DNA of 64,000 bases, from positions 4,777 through 68,776 of the forward strand of contig SCTS01000006.1 in assembly GCA_004322365.1 (NCBI GenBank). Reading direction: 5' to 3'. The translations under genes and the position numbers were made by a program. Under the pieces are notes generated by a model that worked only from the letters and a program-made list of their open reading frames with translations, did not search any database and was not told the origin of the DNA. The first letter of the stretch is position 1, and each line of letters begins with the position of its first letter. This DNA is from Patescibacteria group bacterium. Its GTDB lineage: Bacteria > Patescibacteriota > Minisyncoccia > Phycocordibacterales > Phycocordibacteraceae. Positions 2,092-64,000 of this stretch are shown piece by piece.

Positions 2092-2646
2092 CTAAGCTCC
2101 GATTTCTTTAAACGTAACGCCTGGCGGCAGTGTAAATTTTGACTCATCAACTGTCCACGGCTGACAATCATAGTCGCCAATTGTCTCAGCATTAAAGCCA
2201 ATCTGACCTGATGCGGGAGCTACATTTGTTCCTTCAGGTGCCACCGCCTTTACCTTAAAGCCCATGCTTGGTGCCGCTGAAGTCCATGTATAGGTGTAAC
2301 CGTCGCGAAGTATGAAATCAGTCTGAATAGTTTTGCCGTAGGCTTCAGTCTTAAAATCCCCATTCATCATTCCTTTATATGCATACACAGTCCCCTTCGT
2401 CTCAAGATCACTTACATTTTGGACAACCGTACACTTACTTGCCTCACCACTCTTCAGAAATTCCGAGAACGCCATTTTCTTACCGCTCGGCTGTGCGAGA
2501 GCATTTGCTGTCTCAGTTTTTGAAACTGCACCCTTGTTTGAGGTAATCGCAAAGTATCCTCCTCCAACTACAACGGCACCAACGACAATCCAAAGTATTA
2601 TTTTTTGCATACGATTTAGCGAAATTATGTGAATCAGCAGATTCAT
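2092..2646 (-). CDS. hypothetical membrane-anchored/secreted protein
   Basis: N-terminal hydrophobic helix (likely true start at internal M, MQKIILWIVVGAVVVGGG). Lies directly downstream of an ArsR-type palindrome. No recognisable family. Confidence 0.4.
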   Translation of the reverse strand: MNLLIHIISLNRMQKIILWIVVGAVVVGGGYFAITSNKGAVSKTETANALAQPSGKKMAFSEFLKSGEASKCTVVQNVSDLETKGTVYAYKGMMNGDFKTEAYGKTIQTDFILRDGYTYTWTSAAPSMGFKVKAVAPEGTNVAPASGQIGFNAETIGDYDCQPWTVDESKFTLPPGVTFKEIGA

Positions 2647-2759
2647 GCCGGGCAGTGTCCATTGAAGCCCGGCCGGACGTCCATTAAGGGTCGACTAAAA
2701 ATTATCTTAATAGCTACACTCCTCAGTATACAAGAGACTTACATACCCACCACACAAAA

Positions 2760-2789
2760 CATTCCAACATTCTCAAGAATGTTGGAATG
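2760..2789. promoter_or_regulatory. 30-bp palindrome (14-bp arms, 2-bp spacer) CATTCCAACATTCT-CA-AGAATGTTGGAATG; putative ArsR operator
   Basis: Perfect inverted repeat read from sequence. A second copy lies at 3076-3105. This one sits between the arsR stop and the next gene. Confidence 0.6.
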
Positions 2790-3057
2790 TGGTGATGAAT
2801 CCAACCAGCATACGACCGTACGGAGAGAGCGAGTGTGCCACAGTTCTTCCTTGATACTTTTTATTCAGCAAACCTGCTTGCACCAAACGACGCGTATGTT
2901 CAGAAATTGTTTTTATATTAGAACCGAGACTTTGCGCTATGCCCTCAACCGTAATCTGATCATCAGTATTCACAAGAAGCAAAATCTCAATCCGATGATG
3001 ATTTGCGATCCCTTTAAAATGTCGCTCAAGTTGTTTACTTGTTTTTCCTTTCTTCAT
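2773..3057 (-). CDS. ArsR/SmtB family metalloregulator
   Basis: 94 aa with a winged HTH (HHRIEILLLV..ITVEGIAQSLGSNIKTISEHTRRLVQAGLL), typical of ArsR/SmtB. Confidence 0.8.
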   Translation of the reverse strand: MKKGKTSKQLERHFKGIANHHRIEILLLVNTDDQITVEGIAQSLGSNIKTISEHTRRLVQAGLLNKKYQGRTVAHSLSPYGRMLVGFITTFQHS

Positions 3058-3075
3058 ATATACACAGTACTACAT

Positions 3076-3105
3076 CATTCCAACATTCTTGAGAATGTTG
3101 GAATG
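3076..3105. promoter_or_regulatory. second copy of the 30-bp ArsR-type palindrome, 19-48 bp upstream of the arsR start
   Basis: CATTCCAACATTCT-TG-AGAATGTTGGAATG. Same arms as 2760-2789 with the spacer inverted. Confidence 0.6.
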
Positions 3106-3166
3106 TAAAAGTGAATTAGAGTATCTGAGTGATTTTTTCAAATATTCCTCTCTCTTTGTGAGTAAA

Positions 3167-7528: not shown

Positions 7529-9823
7529 TTATAGTTTCTTTACTTTTAGACGGAGTGAGTTCGTGACCACCGAAACACTCGACATAGCCATCGCAAATCC
7601 CGCAAAGACAGGCGACAACAACCAACCAAAGAACGGAAAGAATATTCCGCTCGCCAGTGGTATGCCAACGATGTTGTATATAAATGCCCAGAACAAATTT
7701 TGTTTGATTCCGCGCATTGTTAACTTTGAGAGGCGAATCGCTTTCACTATTTTAGAAACATCTCCATGAAGAAGCGTAATCCCCGCGCTTTCAATGGCCA
7801 CGTCTGTTCCTGTCGCCATTGCAATACCAACGTCAGCTTGCGCGAGCGCTGGCGCGTCATTCACCCCGTCCCCTGCCATTGCGACGACATACCCCTTGCT
7901 TTGTAACTCCTTAATTTTTGCCAGCTTATCAGCAGGCATGACCTCTGCCACAACCTCATCAATACCAACTTGATCGGCAATATAGCGTGCGGTGTTTTTG
8001 TTATCACCGGTAAGCATTACCACCTTAATCCCAAGCTTGTGCAGATTCTTTACCGCCTCAATGGCTTCCGGCTTTATCGCATCCGCAACCATAAACACCC
8101 CGAGCAACTTTTCTTTTGTTGCAAGCAAGACGGGTGTTTTACCTTCAGTGGTTTCTTTTGTTATTGACTCCGTGTCGAAACTGAGCCCTAGGTCTTGTAT
8201 TAATTTTGTATTACCTGCGAAGTATTCAACACCATCAATTAACCCCTTCACTCCTTTGCCTTTGATCGCTTCAAAACCAGTAACAGTAGGAATATCTATT
8301 TTTCTTTCTTTGGCGGAGGAAGCAATGGCGTGGGCGATTGGATGTTCAGATTTATTTTCAAGTCCTGCCAATACCGAAATAATGTTACTCTCCGATTTCT
8401 CTGAAAGATTTTTAATGGATACTAACTCAGGCTTCCCTCGAGTGAGGGTACCTGTCTTGTCGACCACGACAGTAGTCACCTTGTGAAGTTTTTCCAAAGT
8501 AGCAGCATCTTTCACTAAAATTCCTTCACGAGCGCCTTTGCCTACTCCCACAATAATCGCAGTGGGCGTAGCGAGCCCCAATGCACATGGACATGCAATT
8601 ACCAGAATTCCTACGAAAGAAACAAGTCCGTACGAAAGTGCTTGAGAGAACCCTAGGTACGGTGTACCTATCAAGAGCCATAGGTCGAGAGCAATGACTG
8701 CCAATACCAAAACTACTGGGACAAAAACAGACGAAATTTTGTCAGCCAACGCTTGAATGGGCGCCTTACTTCCTTGAGCGTCTTCAACCATTCTAATAAT
8801 CTGAGACAGGAAAGTCTGTGACCCAATTTTTGTTGCTCTAAACGTAAATACGCCTGAGGTGTTAATAGTTCCGGCCACTATCGAATCACCAAATTCTTTC
8901 TTCACTGGCATTGGCTCACCAGTAACCATAGATTCATCAACAAAAGACTCCCCTTCAGTTATTTCGCCATCAACTGGAATCTTTGCGCCAGGCTTTACGA
9001 TGATAAACTCGCCTACTTTCACTTGGTCTATGGGTATTTCTATCTCCTTTCCATCCCGTATGACGAGCGCGGTCTTTGCCTGAAGATTCAATAGCTTTTC
9101 AATCGCGTCACCTGTTTTAATCTTCGATTTTGCTTCCAGATATTTACCAAGCGTAATGAATGCAATCACCACGATAGTCACGTCGTAATAACTTTGATCA
9201 ACATTCAAATATGGGCGGAGCGATGTCTCGAGAGCCGCTATCATTAAGCTGTATGTGTACGCGGCAAGTGTTCCAATCCCTATAAGGGTGTCCATATTTG
9301 CTTTGCCATAGCGAATGAAGCGATACACACCAAGAAGATACGGTTTACCGACTACAAAAAGCACATACGTTGCAAATGCCGGTAATAGGTGATGAAAAAA
9401 TTCAGACCAAACATAGGGCATCGCCGAAATGATTTTAAATTGGGCGAGAATGTCCCACCCCATGATGAAAGCGGCAAAAATGGCAATGGGAATTGCTGAG
9501 AGTACCTTTATACGCATATCTGCAACCTCCGCTAACTTTTCCTTCTTTGTTTGATTGAGCCCGAGGTGTGCGGCATGATCTTCCGGAGACATACCCATTT
9601 CTAGAGCCGTAGCAGGGATATCTAGAGAATATCCGAGAGGCTCAATATGTTTTGATAGTTCGTGTGCGTTCGTTTTAGCGGGGTCAAAAGAGACCTTCGC
9701 TTTTTCAGTCCCATAGTTTACTTCTGCAGAATGCACGCCTTCAACTTTCTTAAATGTCTTCTCGATAGTCGAGGAGCACGAAGCACAGTGCATTCCTTTA
9801 ATGTTATACGTTTGTGTTTGCAT
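7529..9823 (-). CDS. copA: copper-translocating P1B-type ATPase
   Basis: N-terminal HMA (GMHCASC), CPC motif ([11 protein letters not shown]), DKTGT phosphorylation site, GDGVNDAP hinge. 764 aa. Confidence 0.9.
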
Positions 9824-9847
9824 ATTACTTGTAGTGAGTCTGTCGAA

Positions 9848-10123
9848 CTATTTCCTCTTTAATTTATACACCTTGAGAATTTCTTCTTTTGCCTTGTCTA
9901 TTTTGCCTGACTTCACTTGATTTAAGATGCAGCCACCAAGATGATTCTCGAGGAGAAGATCTTCAACATTCGAAAGCCCCTGTTTTACTGCAGATGTCTG
10001 GGTAATTACATCAATGCAATAGATATCACTCTCAACCATCTTTTGAAGCCCTCGAACTTGACCTTCTAAAAGTTTGAGTCGGCGAATGACTTTCGCTTTA
10101 CTAGTATCATCCATGTATTTCAT
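9848..10123 (-). CDS. csoR: CsoR/RcnR family metal-sensing repressor
   Basis: About 90 aa after trimming to the internal Met (the ORF-track start is GTG at 10165). RRLKLLEGQVRGLQKMVE..YC..H..C is the CsoR signature. Confidence 0.8.
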   Translation of the reverse strand: MKYMDDTSKAKVIRRLKLLEGQVRGLQKMVESDIYCIDVITQTSAVKQGLSNVEDLLLENHLGGCILNQVKSGKIDKAKEEILKVYKLKRK

Positions 10124-10128
10124 ACAAA

Positions 10129-10156
10129 CAAGTATACCCCCTAGGGGGTATACTTG
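10129..10156. promoter_or_regulatory. perfect 28-bp palindrome CAAGTATACCCCCTAGGGGGTATACTTG; CsoR-type operator
   Basis: Read directly from sequence. GC-tract pseudo-palindrome of the ATACCC..GGGTAT type, 5 bp upstream of the csoR start codon. Confidence 0.7.
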
Positions 10157-10163
10157 CAAGTCC

Positions 10164-10191
10164 ACATACCCACATTTGAGTGTGGGTATGT
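10164..10191. promoter_or_regulatory. second palindrome ACATACCCACA-TTTGAG-TGTGGGTATGT between the cusA stop and csoR
   Basis: 11-bp arms with ends related to the CsoR box (TACCC..GGGTA). Could be a second operator or a T-run-less terminator of cusBA. Confidence 0.45.
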
Positions 10192-13100
10192 TACTGATCT
10201 GCCACTTTCTGAAATTTCTTCAGAATATTCTCAAGCTTCGGCATATCGTGATGCCTGAAGTGATAGAACACTGATGGTGTGAAGATGAGTGACACTATCG
10301 TTGAGCTGATAAGTCCTCCAAAAATCACAACCGCGAGTGGGTGTAGAAGCTCTTTGCCTGGCTCTTCTGCTCCGATAAGAAGTGGTACAAGCGCGAGCGC
10401 GGTGACAAGTGAGGTCATAAGAACGGGAACGACACGGTCAAGTGTTGCCTTAAGAACTATCTCCTTCGTTACTCCGTCTCTACTCTCTTTACCTACTAAG
10501 TTGAGCGTGTGACTAATAAGGATGATTCCGTTTCTCGATACGATACCCGCGAGCGATATGAATCCAACGAGGTGTGCGAGATTTATTTCGCCTCCAGTAA
10601 CCCACACTGCAACCATGCCGCCGAATATGGCTGACGGAATATTGAGCATTATCTGGAGCGCAATTGGAATTGACTTGAAGGTCTGATACAGAACCCAAAG
10701 AATAAGCAGAAGTCCTACCGCAAAGAGAATACCGAGTCGCTGGCTGTTTTCTTTCTGACTCTTATAAGTACCTTCATACGAGATGGACTGTCCCTGTGGT
10801 AGTTTTTCTTTGTCCATTGTTTGCTTAACCACCTCAACAGCACCAACAATATTTCCACCTTCATAGTTAGCGCTCACCACAAGAACGCGTTTCCCGCCTT
10901 CATGACTAAATTTATTTCGCCCAGCATCAAGGCGGAGTTCCGCTACATTGCCGAGAGACTCTACTCCATCAAAAGGAAGCGAGAGATCTCGTATGCCGTC
11001 ACTGTTGCCACGCCATGAAGGGTCATACCGAAGAACGACATCAGTACGAGCGGCACCTTCTTGAATCTGACCAATTTTGACTCCAAGAAGACCTTCTTCA
11101 AGTTCTTCTGCAACTTCGCCACTCGATACGCCGTAGTCTGCTAGCCGATTGCGGTCTGGGTAAATACGAAGTTCCGGAAGAAGCACTTCTTTTTGTACTT
11201 GTGGATTTTTTACCCCTTCTTGTTTTGCGAGCTCTGCACGAATCATATCTCCTGTCTGCTTAAGCTCGGATAGATTGTCTCCATACACTTTAACCACTAT
11301 AGGAGCACGAACTCCGGATAGTAGTTCTTCAACACGGTGAGTTATTGGCTGACCTATCGAGAAGTCTGCACCAGGGAATCTATCGACTACTTTCTGTATT
11401 TCGGCGAATAGTTTTTCGCGTTCACCTTCAAGGCCTTGCTCGAAGGTTACCTGGATCTCGCTCGTGTTTGCTCCACTGTCGTGAGGATCTGCACCCGCAC
11501 GACCAGTAATGTGTCCTGCGCGTGCGACACCATCTATTTTTCCTATCTCTTTTTCGACACGAGATGCAAAAGCATTTGACGTTCCAAGATCTGTCCCGAC
11601 AGGCATAACCACAGAGATAGTTGCGGAACCTTCATTGAACGGTGGTATGCCTTCCTTACCTGCAAGCATATACATACCAACAGTGATGAGTATTCCAACG
11701 CCTGTGGCCATCATAAGTGGGCGCACATGATCAATGCCCCACATAATGACAGGGGTCATTTTTGTTTTTATGAAGCGCACGAATTTCGTATCACCTTCAT
11801 GTCCTGTTAGATGTTTTGGTGTGAGCAATAATGCGCACAGCGCGGGGGTTATGGTCACTGACACCACGAGTGACGCGAGCAGTGCAATTAGGTATGCACT
11901 TCCAAGAGACGCCAAAAGACGACCTTCAACTCCCGGAATAAAGAATACGGGCAAGAACACTATCACCACGAGAACAGTCGCAACGACAATCGAACTCAGA
12001 ACTTCGCGAGTGCCCTCATACACAACAGACTGTATTGACTCTGTTGATCCTGATGCTTTCCATTCTCTAAGTCTTCTGAAAACATTCTCAACGCCCACGA
12101 TGGCATTGTCGACCAACTCACCGACTGCAACCGCAATGCCACCTAAAGTCATCACGTTCACAGAGAATCCCAGCAACTTGAAGACAATCAAGGTGACGAG
12201 AATGCTGAATGGAATAGATACAAGAGTGATGAAAGTCACCCTTCGATGCATCAAAAACAGCGCGAGAATAATAGCGACCACAACAACACCTTCGAGGAGC
12301 GCTTTGTAGACGTTATTAAGCCCCGCATCAATAAACCATTCTTGACGAAACAAGTCGTTCTGTAAGGTCACTCCTTCAGGAAGGGATTGCTTGATACCGT
12401 TTAATGCATCATCGACGGAAGCCGTTACCGCGAGTGTCTCCGCTTCCGGCTGTTTTGCAATACGAAGAATGACTCCGGGCTTGCCATCTATAGTTGCACT
12501 GCCACGCACTGGACTCACACCAGAAACTACTGTTCCGATGTCTGCGAGACGTACACCACGGCCATTCCATGTCGTAATGCCAATTTCTTCGATTTCGGCC
12601 ATGTCTTGGGGAGAAACAAGAATGCGAAGTGGGTATTCCTTACCACCCTGCACCAAAAGTCCGCCACTCTTGTTCGTGATTGCAGAGCCAAGCTTCTCTT
12701 CAACATCAGAGATTTTGAGACCGTAGCGTCGCATCGCCTCGGGATTAAGATTGACCTGCCACTCCTTCACATCACCGCCAAGTACGATAATATCGCTCAC
12801 ACCTGGGACGCGCAGAAGCGCTGGTCGCACTGTCCAATCGGCAAGTGTGCGCAACTCTTTACTGTCGGATGTTTCGTCACTCGAGGTAAGTCCAACCCAC
12901 ATAATCTCGCCCATGATGGAGCTCACTGGGCCGAGTACGGGGCGAACATTTGGCGGAAGATCAAGACGTGAAATCCGCTCTTGAATGATTTGTCGATTAC
13001 GATATATATCTGACCCCCAATCAAACTCCGCTTGCACAATGGCGAGTCCAAACGATGCGGTTCCGCGCACGCGTGTGACACCTGGTGCGCCAGCAACCGC

Positions 13101-13343
13101 ATTTTCAACTTGAGAGAGAATTAAACGCTCAACCTCTTCAGGCGCAAACCCCTCAGCTTCGGTAAATACCGCGACCGTTGGTTTGTTAATGTCTGGAAGC
13201 ACGTCGACTTTCATAGTCACGAAGCTCCACGTTCCAAGTAGAATGAGCGCGACAAATACTGCCACAGTCCGCCACTGATGTTTGAGAGAAAGTGAAATAA
13301 TACGATTCAACATACTATTCGTCGTGAGCATGGCCATGCCCAT
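10191..13343 (-). CDS. cusA: heavy-metal-efflux RND permease (CusA/CzcA family)
   Basis: 1050 aa, 12-TM RND architecture with two large periplasmic loops; sequence style of HME-RND. Confidence 0.85.
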   Translation of the reverse strand: MGMAMLTTNSMLNRIISLSLKHQWRTVAVFVALILLGTWSFVTMKVDVLPDINKPTVAVFTEAEGFAPEEVERLILSQVENAVAGAPGVTRVRGTASFGLAIVQAEFDWGSDIYRNRQIIQERISRLDLPPNVRPVLGPVSSIMGEIMWVGLTSSDETSDSKELRTLADWTVRPALLRVPGVSDIIVLGGDVKEWQVNLNPEAMRRYGLKISDVEEKLGSAITNKSGGLLVQGGKEYPLRILVSPQDMAEIEEIGITTWNGRGVRLADIGTVVSGVSPVRGSATIDGKPGVILRIAKQPEAETLAVTASVDDALNGIKQSLPEGVTLQNDLFRQEWFIDAGLNNVYKALLEGVVVVAIILALFLMHRRVTFITLVSIPFSILVTLIVFKLLGFSVNVMTLGGIAVAVGELVDNAIVGVENVFRRLREWKASGSTESIQSVVYEGTREVLSSIVVATVLVVIVFLPVFFIPGVEGRLLASLGSAYLIALLASLVVSVTITPALCALLLTPKHLTGHEGDTKFVRFIKTKMTPVIMWGIDHVRPLMMATGVGILITVGMYMLAGKEGIPPFNEGSATISVVMPVGTDLGTSNAFASRVEKEIGKIDGVARAGHITGRAGADPHDSGANTSEIQVTFEQGLEGEREKLFAEIQKVVDRFPGADFSIGQPITHRVEELLSGVRAPIVVKVYGDNLSELKQTGDMIRAELAKQEGVKNPQVQKEVLLPELRIYPDRNRLADYGVSSGEVAEELEEGLLGVKIGQIQEGAARTDVVLRYDPSWRGNSDGIRDLSLPFDGVESLGNVAELRLDAGRNKFSHEGGKRVLVVSANYEGGNIVGAVEVVKQTMDKEKLPQGQSISYEGTYKSQKENSQRLGILFAVGLLLILWVLYQTFKSIPIALQIMLNIPSAIFGGMVAVWVTGGEINLAHLVGFISLAGIVSRNGIILISHTLNLVGKESRDGVTKEIVLKATLDRVVPVLMTSLVTALALVPLLIGAEEPGKELLHPLAVVIFGGLISSTIVSLIFTPSVFYHFRHHDMPKLENILKKFQKVADQ

Positions 13344-15015
13344 CTCCTCCCGGAGCTGTAGCAGGTTGCTCAGTTATGGCAGCGTCCTCGATTCGCATGC
13401 CTTCAGTAATAGTGTCTGACGCTTCTCTAATGTAGGTATCGCCGAGTGTGAGACCCTCAAGTATTTCGACTGCATCTCCGAACGTCCTACCAGTTTTGAC
13501 TGCCTGAGACGTTACGAGACCTCCCTCTTTCACCATCCATACATGTGGATGATTTACTTCGTCCCAGAACACAGCATCAAATGGGACTACAATAGTTTGA
13601 CTGGTCCGCTTTTCAGGCACTATTCGCACTGATAGGTGTGCAGGCCATTCGAGCTCGCCTTCTACTCGTGCATCGGCCATGAATGCGCCGTTACCATCGA
13701 GCGCTGTACCAACTCCGATTATCGTTGCCGTGCGTACATCCTTCGCAAATCCAGGTCGAATTACTTTTACCGTCTCTCCCTTTTTCGGCACTTCGACATT
13801 GCTTGGGATTCTGAAACGAATAAGCTTATTGATTTGTACCCCTGAGCTTATAGATGCAACTGTTTTCCCTGGTTCTACAAATTCACCGATTTGCCCGAGG
13901 ATAGCAGATACATATCCGCTTTTTGGTGCAATAATCGCCGTGCCGCCGGTGATTGCTCTAGATGCCGCGCCGTATGCTGCTTGTGCCGCTTCGTATTCTG
14001 CTTCTGCGGTTAATTGATCGCGATCGAGTTCAGTATTTTTGTTTGCATTATCACGATTTCGCTCCGCGAATTCTTTTTCCTTTTCAGAAACAGTCAGAAG
14101 CGCTTCACGGTACTTTCCAACCGCCTCATTGAAGCTGGCTTGATGCTCACTGATAAGTTCTCGTAAGTCATTGAGTTCTGCTTGGGTGAATCCCTCTCCT
14201 GAAGAAATGCTTGCAGCTGCCAATTGAGTCGCAACAAGAAAGTACGCAAGACCCTCCTGTTGTGACACTGAGTCTTTTTCAAGAGCGGAAACTACTTTCG
14301 CAGTCGCCGTGAGATATTTATCACGAAGACTGGAATTTGTGACTCCGAACCACCACGGAAGAGTTGTTAAGAATGTGGCATCCTTTGAACTCAAAATATC
14401 CCTATTGTTTCCAGAAAATTCGGAGAACTCCTTAACTACCGATTGTCTTAGGACACCTTTCGCCGTTTCCCCGGCTGCTATTGCCGCTTGCTTTGCTTCA
14501 CTAATTGCTCGCTCTGCTGTGTCGTTTGTTGTGAAGATAGTAAGTTGGGTTTTGGACTGTCCGACGAAACTCTGAGTTGAAGAAAGTTTCGATTTAGCTC
14601 GCGCCACTTCTCCAGCACGCTCCGCGAGAGTGGTTGCGAGTTCCGGTGTAAGTGGCGCAGCCGATAACCGTCCGAGAACCTCTCCAGCGTTCACATATTC
14701 GCCAATAGTGACATTCCACGAAACAACAGTGCCTTGTCGTGGTGGTTGCACATCAGCGTCGTTAGGAGAAATGATTTCTCCCGGCCACGAGGCGAAGGTG
14801 GCGAATGCTTCGCTTTCTGCGCCAACAGTTTGCGTCGCAAGATTTACTTTCTGAAATTCTGTTATTGTGTTTGCCGGTTCTAAAGATGAAGGAAAGTTTA
14901 GCACTCCCAATGTAACCACAAGAACCGTAAACACTCCTGATGCTGCCTGTGTAGTTAAAGGAAGTTGCTTAAACGAACCCCATACGCCTAAGAAAGCGTT
15001 GAGTAATTTTTGCAT
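13315..15015 (-). CDS. RND membrane-fusion (periplasmic adaptor) protein, CusB-like, with C-terminal His-rich tail
   Basis: N-terminal TM, coiled-coil and lipoyl/beta-barrel regions, C-terminus GGDGHGHAHDE. Unusually long at 566 aa. Confidence 0.7.
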   Translation of the reverse strand: MQKLLNAFLGVWGSFKQLPLTTQAASGVFTVLVVTLGVLNFPSSLEPANTITEFQKVNLATQTVGAESEAFATFASWPGEIISPNDADVQPPRQGTVVSWNVTIGEYVNAGEVLGRLSAAPLTPELATTLAERAGEVARAKSKLSSTQSFVGQSKTQLTIFTTNDTAERAISEAKQAAIAAGETAKGVLRQSVVKEFSEFSGNNRDILSSKDATFLTTLPWWFGVTNSSLRDKYLTATAKVVSALEKDSVSQQEGLAYFLVATQLAAASISSGEGFTQAELNDLRELISEHQASFNEAVGKYREALLTVSEKEKEFAERNRDNANKNTELDRDQLTAEAEYEAAQAAYGAASRAITGGTAIIAPKSGYVSAILGQIGEFVEPGKTVASISSGVQINKLIRFRIPSNVEVPKKGETVKVIRPGFAKDVRTATIIGVGTALDGNGAFMADARVEGELEWPAHLSVRIVPEKRTSQTIVVPFDAVFWDEVNHPHVWMVKEGGLVTSQAVKTGRTFGDAVEILEGLTLGDTYIREASDTITEGMRIEDAAITEQPATAPGGDGHGHAHDE

Positions 15016-15029
15016 AATGGTATGTGAGA

Positions 15030-15263
15030 TTAGTCGTTATGTGGCGCTGCTCCCGTGTCATCGTGAGGTACCGCAGTAGTGTCGTTGTGTGGAGCGGTAC
15101 CAGTATCATCATGCGGTGCAATATTTACCGTTTTTTGTTGAGTTGTTGTAGTGTCGCCGGTCTTCGCGTTACCGTCTGATGCTGATTTTCCAAGAACTGT
15201 ATAACCGATAAGGCCACCAACGATAACAATGCCCGCAATAAGAATCAATACTGTTTTGTTCAT
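15030..15263 (-). CDS. small membrane-anchored protein with tandem APH(D/N)DT repeats
   Basis: N-terminal TM then four PH[DN]DT repeat units. The DNA shows the matching tandem 24-bp repeats. Immediately upstream of cusB. Confidence 0.45.
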   Translation of the reverse strand: MNKTVLILIAGIVIVGGLIGYTVLGKSASDGNAKTGDTTTTQQKTVNIAPHDDTGTAPHNDTTAVPHDDTGAAPHND

Positions 15264-15336
15264 AGTTGTTTTAGATTAGAGTCGAAAGTAATAGAAAAAA
15301 TCGTGCAAAAATATGCCACGAATTGTAACGATTCTT

Positions 15337-15717
15337 CTAAAACAGCAGTTGAGTTTTTTGTTGTAGCGGGAGACGCGGTGGGAGTTTTTCTTTCGCGAGA
15401 TGTGTGGAAATTAGATAGTCGTCAAAGTGTACAAAGCTTGAGTTGACGACGACAGATATGCAATAACCCAGACCACCAGTAGAATGCTGATTATCGTCAG
15501 AAACTGTTCGATTGCTTATTATCTGATGAAGTTCTGTTAGACACGGAGAATGGTTATCAGAGTCGGGTGCATGGGGCACTTTGTCCTGATGGGTCTGATC
15601 ATTTGCAAAAGCGACAGAGGGCGATAGGAGTGTATGTCCAAATGTGAAAAAGACGGCAGCAAGGAGCAACGCGACACCAAAAAGTTTTCTCTTCGAATCC
15701 TTACGCTTTGGAAACAT
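15337..15717 (-). CDS. hypothetical secreted His-rich protein
   Basis: Signal/TM segment then HQDKVPHAPDSDNHSP. First gene of the co-directional metal block. Confidence 0.35.
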   Translation of the reverse strand: MFPKRKDSKRKLFGVALLLAAVFFTFGHTLLSPSVAFANDQTHQDKVPHAPDSDNHSPCLTELHQIISNRTVSDDNQHSTGGLGYCISVVVNSSFVHFDDYLISTHLAKEKLPPRLPLQQKTQLLF

Positions 15718-15875
15718 GATGCTATTTTAACACATTTGTAAATTGAGGAGTACAGATGAAGATATTCAAGAATCGCACCAAAAAGAGATTTATAAAAATT
15801 AAACGTTTCTTCTGTGTTACGAGGAAAATTTAGATAGGTGCTTACTCGTGCCAGGTTTTACTCTATTATCTTTAA

Positions 15876-17012
15876 TTATTCTACCATCATTTCAATCGCA
15901 TCAGGGAATGAGTTATAGCCCTTTGCGCGCATGCTGGCACAATAGGCGCCTGTGTCATATATCCGTACCTCATCACCAATTTTCGCCTCTTTTAATGTCC
16001 GTGTCTCAATCTCTTCTGGGTTATCAGCGCCAGGAGAAAGAATATCGCCAGACTCACAATTGTGCCCCACCACTACATATTTTTTTGTAATACTACTTTC
16101 ATTCACCACCTCAATGAGGTGGCGCGAACCATACAAGGTGGCGCGTAAAAAATCATTCATCCCCGTATTAAGACGAAGAAATGTATACCCACCACTCCCT
16201 GTATCAACAATGTCATCTACAGACGCAACTAAAGTCCCTGCGTGCGCAATAAGGTATGTCCCCGGTTCAATCTCTAAAGCAATCTTCCGATTTGTTTTTT
16301 CATAAAACAACTGTAACTTTTTACCAAACATTGCCACAATTTCCACCATGTCAGCCTCCTTCTCATCACCATAGCGATGAATTTTGTATCCACCTCCAAT
16401 GTCGAGCACTGTTACATCAGGCATTTTTTCTACAACACCGAGTGATCGCTCCATTACCTCTCCCCACAGTGCAGGGTCAGTTCCTGAACCAATATGAATA
16501 TGTAGCCTGTTGATGGTTACTTGTTCTGACTGAGCAAGTGCCAGCGCTTCGTCTACATACTCATGCCAGATACCAAAGCTCGCGCTCGTACCTCCAGTGC
16601 TTGTTCTATTGTTATGGCCAGCACCGAACGCTGGGTTAATCCGTACACCAACAACAGAAGGATGATTGGAACAATCTAAAAATAGTTTCAATTGATTAAG
16701 AGATGTTGCCGTAAAGAGCACCCCTGCATTGAGTAGTACTTCAAGATTATGTGGTGACTGCTGTGAGGAAAGGGAAATTTTATTTCCTTCAATTCCTTGG
16801 TTCAATAATTCTTCTGCTTCGTAGCTTGAGCTCGCGTCAAAGTACACTCCTCTTTCATTCATCATTTTAATAATTTCAGGATGAGGATTCGCTTTTATTG
16901 CATACCGAACAGTAAGTCCATATGGTGACGACAAACTAAGAAGTAGTTTGATTGTTTTCTCTATTGCCGAGCGACCATATTCAAAACGAGGTGTGTTCAT
17001 TTTTATGCGCAA
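15876..17012 (-). CDS. PLP-dependent decarboxylase, Orn/DAP/Arg decarboxylase family 2 (diaminopimelate decarboxylase-like)
   Basis: YAIKANPHPEI (PLP-lysine region) and C-terminal GAYCASM-type motifs. 378 aa. Confidence 0.7.
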   Translation of the reverse strand: MRIKMNTPRFEYGRSAIEKTIKLLLSLSSPYGLTVRYAIKANPHPEIIKMMNERGVYFDASSSYEAEELLNQGIEGNKISLSSQQSPHNLEVLLNAGVLFTATSLNQLKLFLDCSNHPSVVGVRINPAFGAGHNNRTSTGGTSASFGIWHEYVDEALALAQSEQVTINRLHIHIGSGTDPALWGEVMERSLGVVEKMPDVTVLDIGGGYKIHRYGDEKEADMVEIVAMFGKKLQLFYEKTNRKIALEIEPGTYLIAHAGTLVASVDDIVDTGSGGYTFLRLNTGMNDFLRATLYGSRHLIEVVNESSITKKYVVVGHNCESGDILSPGADNPEEIETRTLKEAKIGDEVRIYDTGAYCASMRAKGYNSFPDAIEMMVE

Positions 17013-28505: not shown

Positions 28506-28541
28506 AACAAAAAACACCCTGCGGGAAGCAGGGTGTTTTTT
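28506..28541. terminator. bidirectional rho-independent terminator
   Basis: AAAAAA-CACCCTGC-ggga-AGCAGGGTG-TTTTTT. Confidence 0.75.
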
Positions 28542-30367: not shown

Positions 30368-30750
30368 TTGCCCAAAGTATAACAGAATACCCAGTTGGGT
30401 TTTCAACTCAAATGTTTCCTCTATTTCCCAGTCTCGCTAACTCAGCTTCTGCACCCTTCCAGCCCGCTTCATCCTTTTCTTTCAAGTTACCCCCAATTCT
30501 CCCGTTACGAAAAATGCCGTTCGGGCCAATAATAAAACGATAAAACACACCTCCGAGCTGTATATTTCTTGCTATCTCTTTTCCTGGCTCATTCATAGAC
30601 GAATAATGGATTAATCAATACAAAAGGTCAAATTACCGTATTTTAATTACGACCCCACTTCCCTCTGCCTCTCACTCATTCTCACAACACACATATATAC
30701 CCCTTATTCGCACTAATAAGGGGTATATATTCAAAAAAGTTTTCCGTGAG

Positions 30751-31074
30751 TTATTGCGACTTAACAATTTTCTTGGCGACCGCTCCAACAAAAAGACGAT
30801 ACGCTGGCCGGTCCTCCTTTTTGTATGTAATGAGTGCACCAAGAACTCTTTCACAGTGTTCACAAACTAACTGCTTCGCGGTTCGAGTAGATTCTGGAAT
30901 CATCCTATCGGTATACAGACGCTTCAACATTCCCGGTCCATCTTTTTGATAGAGACAAATCACAGCCTTGCAACCCTCACACGAAAGCTCTAGCAAGCGT
31001 GAATACCCACCTCTCGTACGCCGATAGGCATCCTTTTTGAATACAATCGATTTCTTTACACTTTTTCTTTTCAT
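30751..31074 (-). CDS. zinc-ribbon-like protein, paralog 1 of 33201-33533
   Basis: Two CxxC pairs (CEGC..CEHC). Shares ELSCxxC..YQKDG.G.L.R.Y..R ... AYRL with the paralog. Confidence 0.4.
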   Translation of the reverse strand: MKRKSVKKSIVFKKDAYRRTRGGYSRLLELSCEGCKAVICLYQKDGPGMLKRLYTDRMIPESTRTAKQLVCEHCERVLGALITYKKEDRPAYRLFVGAVAKKIVKSQ

Positions 31075-50261: not shown

Positions 50262-50298
50262 CTTAGAAAAAATTCACCCATATATGGGTGAATTTTTT
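50262..50298. terminator. bidirectional rho-independent terminator
   Basis: AAAAAA-TTCACCCATATATGGGTGAA-TTTTTT. Confidence 0.7.
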
Positions 50299-56217: not shown

Positions 56218-56240
56218 TTACCCATGCTATGAAGTGATAA

Positions 56241-56272
56241 AAACCCGCCCACATTTAACTGGCGGGTTTTTA
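56241..56272. terminator. bidirectional rho-independent terminator
   Basis: AAAA-CCCGCC-cacatttaact-GGCGGG-TTTTT between convergent genes. Confidence 0.65.
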
Positions 56273-56566
56273 TTTATGATTCTGAATCCACCACTTTTTT
56301 ACTAGCGGAAGTGATTGCGTAGAGAGGAGGTATCCAACAGCTGGTACTAATGCGTTGAATATGAAATTACTGATGCCTAAGATCGCAAGAATAAAACACG
56401 CGACAACATAGGTGATGATAGTAATAGTGAGGATGCGAAACCAGCTTACTTCCCAAGCTTTTTCGGCTTCTACCTTCAGGTTTCGTTCCCGAATAAGCTG
56501 TACTTCCCTTTCCAATTTTTGTATACGATCTTCTGTCATAGAATCAGTGTAACTCACCCATTTCAA
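56270..56566 (-). CDS. small coiled-coil plus 2-TM membrane protein
   Basis: 98 aa; N-terminal charged helix then two TM helices. Confidence 0.4.
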   Translation of the reverse strand: MKWVSYTDSMTEDRIQKLEREVQLIRERNLKVEAEKAWEVSWFRILTITIITYVVACFILAILGISNFIFNALVPAVGYLLSTQSLPLVKKWWIQNHK

Positions 56567-60842: not shown

Positions 60843-62762
60843 TTATAAAGTTCTTCTTCCCAGCAGAACCGCATTGATCGCCACAATGACAGTTGAAAGA
60901 GACATGAACACCGCCGCTAACCACGGTTGCAATATAATACCCCAAGGCGCGAGTACTCCAGCAGCCAATGGAATAGCGACGACGTTATAGCCGGTTGCCC
61001 AGAAGAGATTCTGGATCATTTTATTGTAGGTAAGACGGGAGAGATTAAAAATTTTCGGAATATCTCTCGGGTCATTTTTAACAAGTATTATTCCCGCAGA
61101 TTCAATGGCCACGTTTGTACCTGCGCCAATTGCGATACCTAGGTTTGCTTGAGCAAGAGCGGGGGCATCATTTACTCCGTCGCCAACCATTGCAACTCTG
61201 CGACCATTACTTTGGAGCAACTTTACTTTTTCAGATTTTTCTTCAGGTCGAACGCACGCAAAATACTCATCAATACCAAGCTCGTTGGCAACTTCTTTCG
61301 CTACGTCCTCGGAATCTCCCGTAATCATCGAGACTAAAATGCCTGCTTCTTTCAAATGTGCCACTGCTTCCTTTGCTTCAGGGCGAACAGAATCGGCTAC
61401 TACGATCGTGCCAATAACCTCACCATCTTTTTCAACGACAATATCCTTACCACCTCGATGACCAACAAAAATAGTAATGCCGTCCACTTTTGCTTCTACT
61501 CCAGTACCCGCGATAGTTTTAAACTCTCTTACTTCTCCAATGTGTAGATTTCTCTTTTGAGCTTCTTTCAGAATTGCCTTGCCGATTGGGTGCTCGGAGT
61601 TTGTTTCCACTGCGGCTGCGAGTGCAAGTACCTCATCTGAGGTTACTGAAACGACACCAAATTCTCCTTTGGTGAGCGTACCCGTTTTATCGAACAAGAC
61701 CGTATCAATCTTCCGAGCTTCTTCAAGTGCGATTCTTTGGCGGATTAACAAACCATTTCTTGCTGCCATTGTTGTTGATATCGCAGCAACTAGCGGTACT
61801 GCCAGACCTAGTGCATGAGGGCAGGCAATTACGAGAACGGCGACAAAACGCTCGACAGCGGTGAGAGTGCCGGCGCCTAGAGCGATCCATGCTGTAAACG
61901 TAATGCCCCCACCAACGATAGCTACAATGGTGAGATAGAACGCAGCTTGATCTGAAAGCACCTGTAATCGCGACTTTGACGCCTGTGCCTCAGCTACCAG
62001 GCGCATTACTCCTGCAAGAAACGTTTTCTCTCCAATGGTACTAATCTCAACTGTGAGGCTACCATCTCCATTTATTGAACCAGCGATGACCTCGGCGCCT
62101 ACAGTTTTTCGCACTGGCTTCGATTCTCCTGTAAGAATGGATTCATTTACATTTGATAGCCCCTCAATTACTTTGCCATCAGCAGGGATTTTTGAGCCCG
62201 GCTTTATCAAAACAACATCGCCAACCTTAAGTTCAGAAATTGAGATCGTTATCGTAGAGCCACCACGAATAACATCTGCAGTATCAGGGAGCAGTTTTGA
62301 TAACTCTTTGAGTGCCCCTTGTGCGTTGGTGACAGATTTCATCTCAATCCAATGACCAAGAAGCATAATTGTTATTAGAGACGCGAGTTCAAACATCAGA
62401 TCATGCATCCCGCCTGAGAGTATTGAGAAGGTGCTATACGCGTAAGCGGCAGTAACTGCAATGGCAATGAGCGTCATCATGCCGGGCAATCTGTCTTTTA
62501 GCTCCCGGTATGCACTTTGGAGAAATACCCAACCACAGTAAAAGTAGGTAACCGAGCCGAGTAGAAGCAAAAGGTATTGCCACCCGATGAACTCGGGACC
62601 ACGAATATTAAAAACCTCCATAGCCATTTCTGAGTAGAAGAAAATGGGGACGGAAAGTACCAAAGAAATCCAGAACTTCTTTAAGAAGTCGGCAGTGTGA
62701 TGCCCGGCGTGTTTGTCATGCTGTGCCTCATGCTGGTGATGAGGCGAGTGGTTGTGGTCCAT
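60843..62762 (-). CDS. P1B-type heavy-metal ATPase, CopB-like (CPH motif, His-rich N-terminus, no HMA domain)
   Basis: MDHNHSPHHQHEAQHDKHAGHH N-terminus, [26 protein letters not shown]. Confidence 0.85.
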   Translation of the reverse strand: MDHNHSPHHQHEAQHDKHAGHHTADFLKKFWISLVLSVPIFFYSEMAMEVFNIRGPEFIGWQYLLLLLGSVTYFYCGWVFLQSAYRELKDRLPGMMTLIAIAVTAAYAYSTFSILSGGMHDLMFELASLITIMLLGHWIEMKSVTNAQGALKELSKLLPDTADVIRGGSTITISISELKVGDVVLIKPGSKIPADGKVIEGLSNVNESILTGESKPVRKTVGAEVIAGSINGDGSLTVEISTIGEKTFLAGVMRLVAEAQASKSRLQVLSDQAAFYLTIVAIVGGGITFTAWIALGAGTLTAVERFVAVLVIACPHALGLAVPLVAAISTTMAARNGLLIRQRIALEEARKIDTVLFDKTGTLTKGEFGVVSVTSDEVLALAAAVETNSEHPIGKAILKEAQKRNLHIGEVREFKTIAGTGVEAKVDGITIFVGHRGGKDIVVEKDGEVIGTIVVADSVRPEAKEAVAHLKEAGILVSMITGDSEDVAKEVANELGIDEYFACVRPEEKSEKVKLLQSNGRRVAMVGDGVNDAPALAQANLGIAIGAGTNVAIESAGIILVKNDPRDIPKIFNLSRLTYNKMIQNLFWATGYNVVAIPLAAGVLAPWGIILQPWLAAVFMSLSTVIVAINAVLLGRRTL

Positions 62763-62795
62763 ATTATTTTTTCTTTTGAATTAGCTTGTACACTT

Positions 62796-63035
62796 TCAAC
62801 ATCTCATCGATAGCTTTTTTTCTTTACCGATCTTCATCTGATGTAATACGTGAGTAGATAGGTGGTTTTCAAGCATAAGATTTTCCACTCCGGAAAGCGC
62901 CTCCTTGATTGCATTCGACTGCGTAATAATCTCAATACAGTATTTTTCGTCTTCAATCATCTTCATCAGGCCCTTTAGCTGACCTTGTACAATTTGGAGA
63001 CGACGAACAATTTTTTTCTTAGTATCAGACTTCAT
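62796..63035 (-). CDS. CsoR/RcnR family repressor (second copy)
   Basis: RRLQIVQGQLKGLMKMIE..YC..H..C. Start trimmed to MKSDTKKK. Confidence 0.75.
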   Translation of the reverse strand: MKSDTKKKIVRRLQIVQGQLKGLMKMIEDEKYCIEIITQSNAIKEALSGVENLMLENHLSTHVLHQMKIGKEKKLSMRC

Positions 63036-63042
63036 TATAGTA

Positions 63043-63062
63043 TTATACCCCCTAGGGGTATT
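63043..63062. promoter_or_regulatory. CsoR-type box TATACCCCCTAGGGGTATTA (one G shorter than the locus-1 box), 8 bp upstream of the csoR-2 start
   Basis: Same ATACCCCC-TA-GGGGTAT core as 10129-10156. Confidence 0.6.
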
Positions 63063-63140
63063 AGACACAAACAAAACACCCCTTATTTTTCGAATCCAGC
63101 AAAAAAGTCATTTGTGCGGACATGGGTAAATCTAGACGAA

Positions 63141-63212
63141 TTGGATTCGGTTCTTACATTTGACCCTCAGAGGAAGACAAAGCGTCTTCCGTCCGCGCAC
63201 TTGTGCGGACAC
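63141..63212. repeat. repeat B: TTGGATTCG fragment joined to repeat body (TTTGACCCTCAGAGGAAGACAAAGCGTCTTCC..TGTGCGGACA)
   Basis: About 75% identical to repeat A over 55 nt; lies 135 bp from the tRNA-Tyr 3' end. Confidence 0.6.
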
Positions 63213-63347
63213 GGATAAATCTCCTGACGGAGATTTTCCGCGATCCCCGCCTCGGTATTTTTGCCTTTCGCTTCGCTCAAACAAAAATATACCTGCGGCC
63301 GCGCACAAAGCAGAAAACCTCCCGCAGGGGAGGTATTTCTAGCTTTG

Positions 63348-63430
63348 TGCGCCGGGTTGGATTCGAACCAACGAAGACCGAAGTCAGGAGATTTACAGTC
63401 TCCCCTCGTTGACCACTTGAGTACCGACGC
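63348..63430 (-). tRNA. tRNA-Tyr (anticodon GTA)
   Basis: Manual fold: acceptor GCGTCGG/CCGGCGC (one G-T pair), anticodon loop CTGTAAA, long variable hairpin TGACTTCGGTCTTCG, T-arm GTTGG-TTCGAAT-CCAAC. Confidence 0.8.
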
Positions 63431-63475
63431 AACTAACTAGCCAGTTATGGCTAGTTGCTACAGTAACACTTTTCT

Positions 63476-64000
63476 TTAGTTTTTTGAACTCGCCGCTCCG
63501 ACTTTCGCACGGTGTGACTTAGTAGCACGGGCACTCTTCACAACATCAAAAACAAACTCATTCCCCTTCATGCTGACGCTCACGGTACCTCCCTGCATCA
63601 CGCCACGGGACACCATAAACGATGCTACCGGCGTGAGAATCTTAGATTGAATCAAGCGTTTCAATGGTCTAGCGCCGTACTGAGGGCTATAGCCTTCTTT
63701 AGCAAGGTACGCATACACTTCAGGATGTATTGCGAGCTTAATGTCTTTCGTAGCGAGTCTATCTTCCACAATCTTCACCTGCATATCAACAATGTTCTTT
63801 ATTGCTTCTACCGAGAGAATGTTAAAGACAATAATCTCATCGAGACGGTTCAAGAATTCTGGTCTGAAGTAATCTTTCAGACGACCCATGACTTTCTCTT
63901 TGGCAATGGCATATTCAGCAACATCACTGCCATTTGCTGAGCTAAATCCGAAGCTCGACATCTTATCGATGAACTCAGCTCCGATGTTTGAAGTCAAAAT
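63476..64000 (-). CDS. Clp ATPase (ClpB/ClpC-type), C-terminal portion; gene continues past window end
   Basis: D2 small-domain region (..YGARPLKRLIQ..). ORF open to the window edge. Confidence 0.7.
   Translation of the reverse strand: MLTSNIGAEFIDKMSSFGFSSANGSDVAEYAIAKEKVMGRLKDYFRPEFLNRLDEIIVFNILSVEAIKNIVDMQVKIVEDRLATKDIKLAIHPEVYAYLAKEGYSPQYGARPLKRLIQSKILTPVASFMVSRGVMQGGTVSVSMKGNEFVFDVVKSARATKSHRAKVGAASSKN

Follow-up and report, generated by a model that had tools for sequence, protein, structure and literature searches.

The closest described counterparts of the element considered here are the type-2 operators of Streptomyces lividans CsoR, which are defined by a 5'-TAC-X9-GTA-3' inverted dyad within a pseudo-palindrome of ~20 bp (PMC3902906). 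The characterised sites include copZA2 TATACCCCCTAGGGGTAAGG and copZA1 GGGTACCCCCTAGGGGTATACA, and the streptomycete type-2 consensus reads ATATACCCCTNAGGGGTATAT; the TAC/GTA dyad is essential and spans the width of one tetramer, two CsoR tetramers occupy each operator, a half-site alone is left unbound, and at copZA1 extra external dyads tune the affinity (PMC3902906). In Mesorhizobium, the operator of the CsoR/RcnR-family regulator NreA fills the -35/-10 spacer of a 39-bp region whose transcript is leaderless by 5'-RACE (rapid amplification of cDNA ends), while tandem operators of RcnR and of some CsoR-family promoters offer a precedent for two-site control (PMC12724321). The present analysis concerns two copper loci within a 64,000-nucleotide stretch (the window) of contig SCTS01000006.1, assembly GCA_004322365.1, from a genome of the Patescibacteria, or Candidate Phyla Radiation (CPR). 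It centres on a perfect palindrome (I1) directly ahead of the csoR gene of the first locus (csoR1), a similar box (box 2) ahead of that of the second (csoR2), and another palindrome (I3) that lies beside I1 at the end of an RND efflux gene.

Taken as a whole, the evidence makes it likely that I1 and box 2 are operators lying inside their own promoters, that the mRNAs of both loci are leaderless, and that I3 stands outside this module as a young, lineage-specific hairpin. All genes at both copper loci are on the minus strand, and the elements of the first locus are listed below.

10121..10123, minus strand: ATG of csoR1, 7 nt past the -10 hexamer; predicted transcription start site (TSS) of a leaderless mRNA.
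10129..10156, strand-neutral: I1, a perfect 28-bp palindrome, CAAGTATACCCCCTAGGGGGTATACTTG, with 14-nt arms, 100% complementary and with no spacer (inverted-repeat search).
10131..10136, minus strand: -10 hexamer TATACT, wholly in I1; its first three bases, TAT, complete the 3' half-site GGGTAT.
10134..10151, strand-neutral: core type-2 CsoR box ATACCCCCTAGGGGGTAT, a TAC-X10-GTA dyad with C5/G5 tracts about a central TA.
10154..10159, minus strand: -35 hexamer TTGCAA (promoter scan), the last 3 bp inside I1.
10164..10191, strand-neutral: I3, with 11-nt arms ACATACCCACA (10164-10174) and TGTGGGTATGT (10181-10191), 11/11 complementary, and a 6-nt loop.

I1 is separated from the csoR1 ATG (10123-10121) by 5 bp (10128-10124). 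A perfect 28-bp palindrome at this distance had been reported from a first reading of the DNA (the original prediction), and the inverted-repeat search recovered it. Its dyad, TAC-CCCCTAGGGG-GTA, has the type-2 geometry with an X10 spacer, and on the coding strand two G/C tracts flank a short A/T centre (C5-TA-G5). The main comparison set consisted of 80 genome loci encoding CsoR1 relatives of 64-88% identity, to which five lineages with very close relatives (92-100% identical) were added, together with 19 metagenome loci for csoR2; individual loci are designated L, with L001 being the window. A CsoR box precedes the csoR homologue in 80/80 of the related genome loci, and the TACCC..GGGTA element measures 15 nt (X9) in 21 boxes and 16 nt (X10) in 60 (n=81). 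Judged by sequence, I1 and box 2 are type-2 CsoR-family operators, in line with the CsoR type that the original prediction gave them: they agree with the copZA sites of S. lividans and with the type-2 consensus, stand before two CsoR-family genes, and each overlaps the predicted promoter of a csoR or copper-efflux operon.

The 64 kb contain exactly three copies of the pattern ATACCC-N(3-16)-GGGTAT: I1, I3 and box 2. Shuffled sequence predicts 0.00, a figure that overstates the significance of I3. This is because the arms of a palindrome are not independent; because the window contains 18 perfect inverted repeats (arms of at least 10 nt, loop of up to 12) against 0.5 expected under a first-order Markov model; and because TACCC/GGGTA stems are also found in an ordinary terminator in a related genome (L059).

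The promoter scan over 9700-10500 returned a single sigma-70-like site on the coding strand, TTGCAA-17-TATACT (10159..10131), and this site lies on I1. The original claim that the second palindrome necessarily overlaps the promoter does not hold, since the only candidate is placed on I1 and its geometry is kept in 71/81 promoters, among relatives that lack I3. Relative to the predicted +1 at 10123, I1 covers -33..-6 and I3 covers -41..-68, and I3 is therefore upstream of the -35, with no overlap of the promoter. Among the 81 scorable promoters, the best -35/-10 pair is always separated by a spacer of 16-18 bp (81/81) and matches the consensus at ~9/12 positions or better in 62; the -35 is mostly TTGACA, TTGACT or TTGCAA, and the -10 begins either within the GTAT of the box or 2 nt after it. 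In 71 of these 81 promoters, 6-8 nt lie between the -10 and the ATG, a distance that persists where the N-terminus of the protein differs in length (MKYMDD.. vs MQTN..), and the start codon is ATG in 80. As 6-8 nt is the normal distance from a -10 to the TSS, a leaderless mRNA beginning with the A of the ATG (10123) is the most economical reading, and the csoR-copA mRNA is most likely leaderless, with its TSS on or beside that base. A leaderless transcript would also be the reason that the box lies only 5-8 bp from the start codon. At both loci the operator occupies the -35/-10 spacer of the predicted promoter, with an ATG gap of 7 nt at the first and 6 nt at the second.

Together, these features suggest a simple mode of control, in which I1 and the box at 63044-63063 would each be built into the core of their own sigma-70-type promoter. 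At the first locus, the box would fill the 17-bp spacer, adjoined on its left by the -35, and its right half-site, GGGTAT, would merge into the -10. Apo-CsoR, bound as two tetramers as in characterised homologues, would cover -33..-6 and exclude RNA polymerase; binding of Cu(I) at Cys36/His61/Cys65 would then release CsoR1 from the operator. Transcription would begin at or next to the ATG, yielding leaderless csoR-copA and csoR2-copB mRNAs.

Several observations weigh against this model. The TSS and the leaderless status are deduced from geometry alone, the gap differs from 6-8 nt in about 10 of the 81 loci, and the -35 of the second locus, TTGTGT, is weak (3/6) and below the threshold of the promoter scan. 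Genome-wide, the signal from -10-like hexamers placed 6-8 nt before starts is noisy: ATGs show a small TANNNT peak at a distance of 6 nt, and the small gene set is dominated, and so biased, by homologous genes that recur in it. Shine-Dalgarno-like 4-mers are found 5-8 nt before the starts of only ~7% of 302 open reading frames (ORFs) in the related loci; translation in these genomes thus seems to be initiated largely without such motifs, and by the same token their absence before csoR is not distinctive. Finally, I3 shares ATACCC/GGGTAT with the operator 7 bp away and is a perfect 11-bp repeat, an unusual combination that keeps a function for it conceivable.

At the second copper locus the elements are as follows.

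60843..62762, minus strand: second copper P-type ATPase, with a His-rich N-terminus and a CPH motif (CopB-like), following csoR2.
62764..63035, minus strand: csoR2 (PF02583), a Cys33-His58-His62 variant.
63042..63047, minus strand: -10 TATAAT of csoR2, 6 nt before the ATG at 63035; read from the sequence, with the same geometry in relatives.
63044..63063, strand-neutral: box 2, CsoR box TATACCCCCTAGGGGTATTA (TAATACCCCTAGGGGGTATA on the minus strand), a TAC-X9-GTA dyad kept in the csoR2 relatives L088-L104.
63065..63070, minus strand: -35 TTGTGT of csoR2, weak (3/6 match), 17 bp upstream of the -10; read from the sequence.

The presence of a near-identical box 8 bp upstream of the second csoR, as originally described, is upheld in both sequence and distance, with the position corrected by one base to 63044-63063. 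The dyad of box 2, TAC-CCCTAGGGG-GTA, has exactly the X9 spacing of type 2, and its tracts read C4-TA-G5 on the coding strand, so that compared with the first box it has one G/C fewer in a tract (C5-TA-G4 on the + strand). The same box is carried by 16 csoR2 relatives, mostly with a -10 that lies 6-9 nt before the start codon. In place of the x-Cys-His-Cys ligand set, CsoR2 has Cys33-His58-His62 (ENHLSTHV), as do 16/16 of its relatives (ENHLS[T/E]HV), and it is therefore regarded as a CsoR-family member of uncertain metal specificity. As it stands, the csoR2 ORF ends at 62796 after 79 aa, whereas in L088 and L089, two metagenome loci that are 99% identical, it is an intact 90 aa; the frameshift is a deletion of 1 nt (G) at ~62814/62815 (62814-62822), beside an A-run, and either arose by error in sequencing or assembly or marks a gene that became a pseudogene very recently. 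One operator sequence is thus common to two paralogues with different ligand sets (Cys-His-Cys and Cys-His-His). As the two paralogous repressors share this operator sequence in one genome, cross-talk between the copper loci is predicted.

Beyond the dyad itself, the operator palindrome reaches 5-9 bp past TAC/GTA in 9-11 of the 81 loci, the window (10129-10156) included; the others, around the csoR start, are L011, L018, L019, L031, L033, L034, L036, L042 and L044. The outer arms vary by locus and stay complementary (CAAG/CTTG, ACTAG/CTAGT, CCGAG/CTCGG, GACAC/GTGTC and others), with at least 5/6 complementary pairs in 9 loci, a number for which permuted partners give 0.42 and shifted registers 0. 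This covariation extends into the -35 and into the bases directly after the -10. Candidate explanations are a cruciform, a hairpin in read-through RNA, symmetric flank contacts or template-switch mutation.

I3 corresponds to the second palindrome of the original prediction, which placed two arms around an N6 loop at the stop of the RND gene (there cusA); its arms pair at 11/11 positions, and its first base is the final A of the stop codon TAA. It is not conserved with the promoter that it adjoins. The I3 zone and the promoter/operator were each compared over 36 bp in the closest relatives, with the following result.

Window (L001), the reference for identities: RND gene upstream; hairpin -17.2 kcal/mol.
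L087: CsoR 93%; RND gene upstream; promoter/operator 36/36, I3 zone 28/36; hairpin -8.2 kcal/mol.
L082-85: CsoR 97%; RND gene lost; promoter/operator 36/36, I3 zone 27/36; hairpin -6.4 kcal/mol.
L086: CsoR 92%; RND gene lost; promoter/operator 34/36, I3 zone 22/36; hairpin -2.9 kcal/mol.

L082-L087 share only ..CCAC..GTGG.. remnants of the I3 repeat, an I3-like, wide-spaced element beside the promoter occurs in none of the 80 genome loci, and no further full copies of ACATACCCACA were found with up to 2 mismatches. I3 is thus most likely, as far as can be judged from these alignments, a recent lineage-specific hairpin following the RND gene and lying outside the promoter module.

What such a hairpin might do can be approached in several ways. 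The proposal that I3 is a second CsoR operator, overlapped by the promoter and acting with I1 in cooperative repression, draws on the fact that each of the three ATACCC...GGGTAT elements of the window stands before a csoR gene, on the mere 7 bp between I3 and I1, and on the external dyads that modulate affinity at S. lividans copZA1 (PMC3902906). However, the dyad of I3, TAC-CCACACTCAAATGTGG-GTA, has an X16 spacing that lies outside the type-2 range and outside the X9/X10 of the 81 related boxes and of both canonical boxes of the window, and a half-site alone is unbound in S. lividans. I3 also has only CCC/GGG runs, short of the G/C tracts of at least 4 that mark the boxes of this clade; it is not kept in relatives whose promoter is identical (36/36); no promoter-like hexamers overlap it in the scan of 9700-10500; and its centre is 35 bp from that of I1, or 3.3 helical turns, and so out of phase. 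A second box of any kind occurs in only 1/80 loci (L033), where it is canonical and 94 nt upstream, and TACCC/GGGTA stems are found in an ordinary terminator (L059, TACCC-GAAA-GGGTA). Two-site cooperative repression is accordingly unlikely, and we give it very little credence. A different binding site is suggested by a DnaA-box-like 9-mer, TTATCCACA, which is present in 6 perfect copies in the 6.9 kb made up of the 70 nt upstream of each box, against 6 in the remaining 649 kb of the same loci, a ~95-fold enrichment. It sits 0-30 nt upstream of the -35 of CsoR-box promoters, mostly in forward orientation, and is perfect in L022, L023, L034, L048, L065 and L093; with 14 further loci it reaches 20/99 at up to 1 mismatch (~20% of lineages). 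The corresponding zone of the window is 10157-10191, and I3 could be a degenerate element of this type (TTATCCACA / TGTGGATAA) that became palindromic and binds DnaA or another factor: each arm (ATACCCACA) agrees with the 9-mer at 7/9 positions, TGTGGAC adjoins the arm nearest the -35, and the homologous position reads TGTGGATTT in the close relative L082 and TGTGGGTTC in L087. Against this, ATACCCACA has 2 mismatches, so that neither arm qualifies as the motif at up to 1 mismatch and the window falls outside the 20 matching loci; the variant A[TC]CCCACA is upstream of no other promoter, and CCCACA is not enriched upstream of those promoters; and the sequence allows no assignment to a protein. 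As the motif is not enriched over the window as a whole, it was rejected as a general feature of the window, and the exact arm variant of I3 was likewise rejected as an element of other promoters, where it did not recur. Literature searches on CsoR with the CPR and on CsoR with DnaA boxes found nothing relevant. We consider a DnaA-box origin unlikely. A broader version, in which I3 would be an auxiliary site at -55 (a wide-spaced CsoR site or a DnaA-box-like pair), a second factor, possibly DnaA, would co-control the copper-efflux promoters, and the covarying extended palindromes would reflect selection for a cruciform or hairpin, seems similarly improbable.

Rather than being a DNA site, I3 may act as RNA, alone or with the RNA of I1, as a terminator, pause site or exonuclease barrier at the 3' end of the MFP-RND transcript. 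The hairpin sets in at the final base of the RND stop codon and is stable (-17.2 kcal/mol), and a read-through RNA (10215-10120) would form the hairpins of I3 and then I1 (-40.7 kcal/mol, z = -5.1), with UUUGUAUG directly after the second. The many perfect intergenic hairpins of the window include several canonical bidirectional terminators, and many relatives have a canonical terminator at the same place, just upstream of the -35. The stem of I3, however, is followed by GGACUUGC, without a U-tract, and the terminator scan over 9700-10500 found 0 sites and did not call I3. Of the two other RND-csoR junctions, the one in L087, the same as in the window, has a weak hairpin (-8.2 kcal/mol), and the one in L018 has none; a permissive Rfam search of 10050-10300, 30380-30800 and 63030-63480 gave only chance hairpin matches and tRNA-Tyr. 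An RNA role is nevertheless a real possibility, if somewhat short of an even one, and ranks first among the readings of I3 weighed here. It is also conceivable, though on balance doubtful, that I3 has no function, and that an ancestral imperfect repeat (..CCAC..GTGG..) was perfected by a template-switch (quasi-palindrome) mutation, its likeness to a CsoR site being coincidental. The corresponding position in relatives has imperfect forms of the repeat, and the identity of the I3 zone (22-28/36) is about that of the RND fossil (47-49/68) in L082 and L086, where the RND gene is lost; after copying of one arm, moreover, only one need resemble GGGTAT, and ACCC/GGGT-type stems are common among the hairpins of this genome. 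On the other side, two split-box palindromes (I3 and that at 30693-30730) among 16 non-operator palindromes exceed what a simple calculation would give, the chance being roughly put at ~1%, and four lineages cannot show neutrality.

Gene identities at the first locus were taken from Pfam and NCBIfam matches of the window proteins, and the principal genes are these.

7529..9823, minus strand: copA, P1B-type copper ATPase with an N-terminal HMA domain plus E1-E2 and hydrolase domains, scoring above the TIGR01511 cut-off.
9848..10123, minus strand: csoR1, 91 aa (PF02583, 6e-23).
10191..13343, minus strand: RND efflux permease, CusA/CzcA-like, of the AcrB family; stop codon TAA at 10193-10191.
13315..15015, minus strand: gene for a membrane fusion protein (MFP), preceding the RND gene.

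CsoR1 aligns to the CsoR structures 4M1P, 4ADZ and 2HH7. Its translation, aligned to 4M1P and 4ADZ, contains Cys36-His61-Cys65, Tyr35 and Glu81, corresponding to the x-Cys-His-Cys ligand set and the Tyr35/Glu81 second shell of a Cu(I) sensor, the ligands being numbered as in M. tuberculosis CsoR; Arg15 and Gln42 are the equivalents of the DNA-binding R57 and Q81 of S. lividans. Its close homologues number in the thousands, are mostly 91 aa long and, where a source is named, are labelled Patescibacteria, Parcubacteria or Minisyncoccota. Downstream of csoR1, copA is followed by a copper-related run of genes encoding a YncE-like propeller, DUF305, HMA-DsbD_2 and cupredoxin-like proteins.

The RND gene, whose best NCBIfam match is CusA/CzcA (645 bits, below the cut-off of 701), ends 67 bp before csoR1. 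Read-through from it into csoR-copA is possible, there being no canonical terminator between them, and to that extent the suggested coupling of the pump genes to csoR-copA stands; it is not a conserved design, as RND-csoR adjacency is found in only 3 of ~87 loci (L001, L087 and L018). An RND gene upstream of csoR was for the same reason rejected as a conserved arrangement. A further candidate, CTTGAGAATATTCTGAAG (10218-10235, inside the 3' end of the RND gene), was rejected as a conserved upstream operator because it is confined to close relatives, where it belongs to the RND gene or to the RND fossil.

Comparison with L082-L086 marks the interval between an ornithine/arginine decarboxylase gene and csoR (10191-17012 in the window) as a variable site for gene cassettes. 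It contains the MFP and RND genes in L087 and in the window, where two small ORFs precede them; in L082-85 all that is left is a fossil of ~45 nt from the 3' end of the RND gene, which L086 shares in addition to its sigma-70 and PAS genes. Identity forms a mosaic across the promoter: between the window and L082 it is 98% in csoR and 69% in the RND fossil, and between the window and L087 it is 91% in csoR and 96% in the RND 3' end.

Among the 18 perfect inverted repeats of the window, those at 28509-28541, 50267-50298 and 56237-56273 are canonical bidirectional terminators. The palindrome ACATTCCAACATTCT-N2-AGAATGTTGGAATGT is present in two copies, at 2759-2790 and 3076-3105, both within the ORF span 2629-3108. 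A third perfect palindrome related to the CsoR box, ATATATACCCCTTATT-N6-AATAAGGGGTATATAT, is located at 30693-30730, with a 14-nt insert dividing the CsoR consensus to which its arms correspond (ATATACCCCT/AGGGGTATAT). A hypothetical ORF (31095-30751) stops 20 nt before it, dnaX (30406-29336) begins ~290 nt downstream of it, and no copper gene is nearby. Close to the second copper locus, beside a tRNA-Tyr gene (63347-63430, minus strand), the interval 63089-63230 contains inverted pieces identical to tRNA-Tyr, one of the T-arm (TTCGAATCCA) and one of the anticodon-arm (TAAATCTCCTGAC), and a 25-nt direct repeat, CAYTTGTGCGGACAYGGRTAAATCT, occurs at 63109 and 63198. These fragments and the repeat may have been left behind when DNA integrated or was rearranged at the tRNA gene.

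The element described here is of a known kind, a type-2 CsoR operator with a predicted fusion to a leaderless promoter, as in NreA; as a standard CsoR operator it adds little alone. The promoter model for this locus is accordingly corrected, in that the operator would itself be the promoter and the mRNA is probably leaderless. A promoter-operator-start module of ~36 bp recurs near-unchanged over ~100 loci of uncultured Patescibacteria, a group in which, to our knowledge, almost no promoters or regulators have been characterised. With so few described, the module provides a ready, testable example of the signals for transcription and translation initiation in the CPR, as well as a compact copper-inducible part.

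Relative to the systems already described, the likeness is greatest to S. lividans csoR, copZA1 and copZA2 and other Gram-positive CsoR sites, with which the core is near-identical (TACCCCCTAGGGGTA). The TAC/GTA dyad, the C/G tracts about an A/T centre and the position before csoR or copA are those of the S. lividans type-2 operators, and the outer GTA...TAC dyad of copZA1 has its counterpart in the GTATAC...GTATAC of I1 (PMC3902906). CsoR1 likewise shares with S. lividans CsoR the Cys-His-Cys ligands and the equivalents of R57 and Q81, although another residue stands in place of the final Arg of the RLXR motif (RRLKL). The dyad spacer, X9 in S. lividans, is mostly X10 in the patescibacterial boxes (60/81), and the host, the fusion of the operator to the -10 and the probably leaderless transcript also set these sites apart.

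I3 resembles a Rho-independent terminator in being a perfect, stable stem-loop directly past a stop codon, and differs from one in having no U-tract and only 5 G-C pairs among its 11 stem pairs. With the tandem operators of RcnR and the CsoR family, the first locus shares the presence of two close dyads upstream of a metal-efflux operon. In RcnR tandem sites both are of the same type and spacing, whereas I3 has an X16 spacing, lacks G-tracts and is not conserved. The module as a whole finds its nearest parallel in Mesorhizobium NreA, where a dyad operator similarly occupies the -35/-10 spacer of a compact module (~36-39 bp), the regulator gene is first in the operon and the start codon follows directly past the -10. 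The NreA operator, however, is of type 1 (a single G7 tract, TATCC..GGATA) and serves nickel sensing, whereas the operator here is of type 2 and its regulator has copper-type ligands; and the leaderless start that was mapped for NreA is, in these Patescibacteria, predicted from the same geometry.

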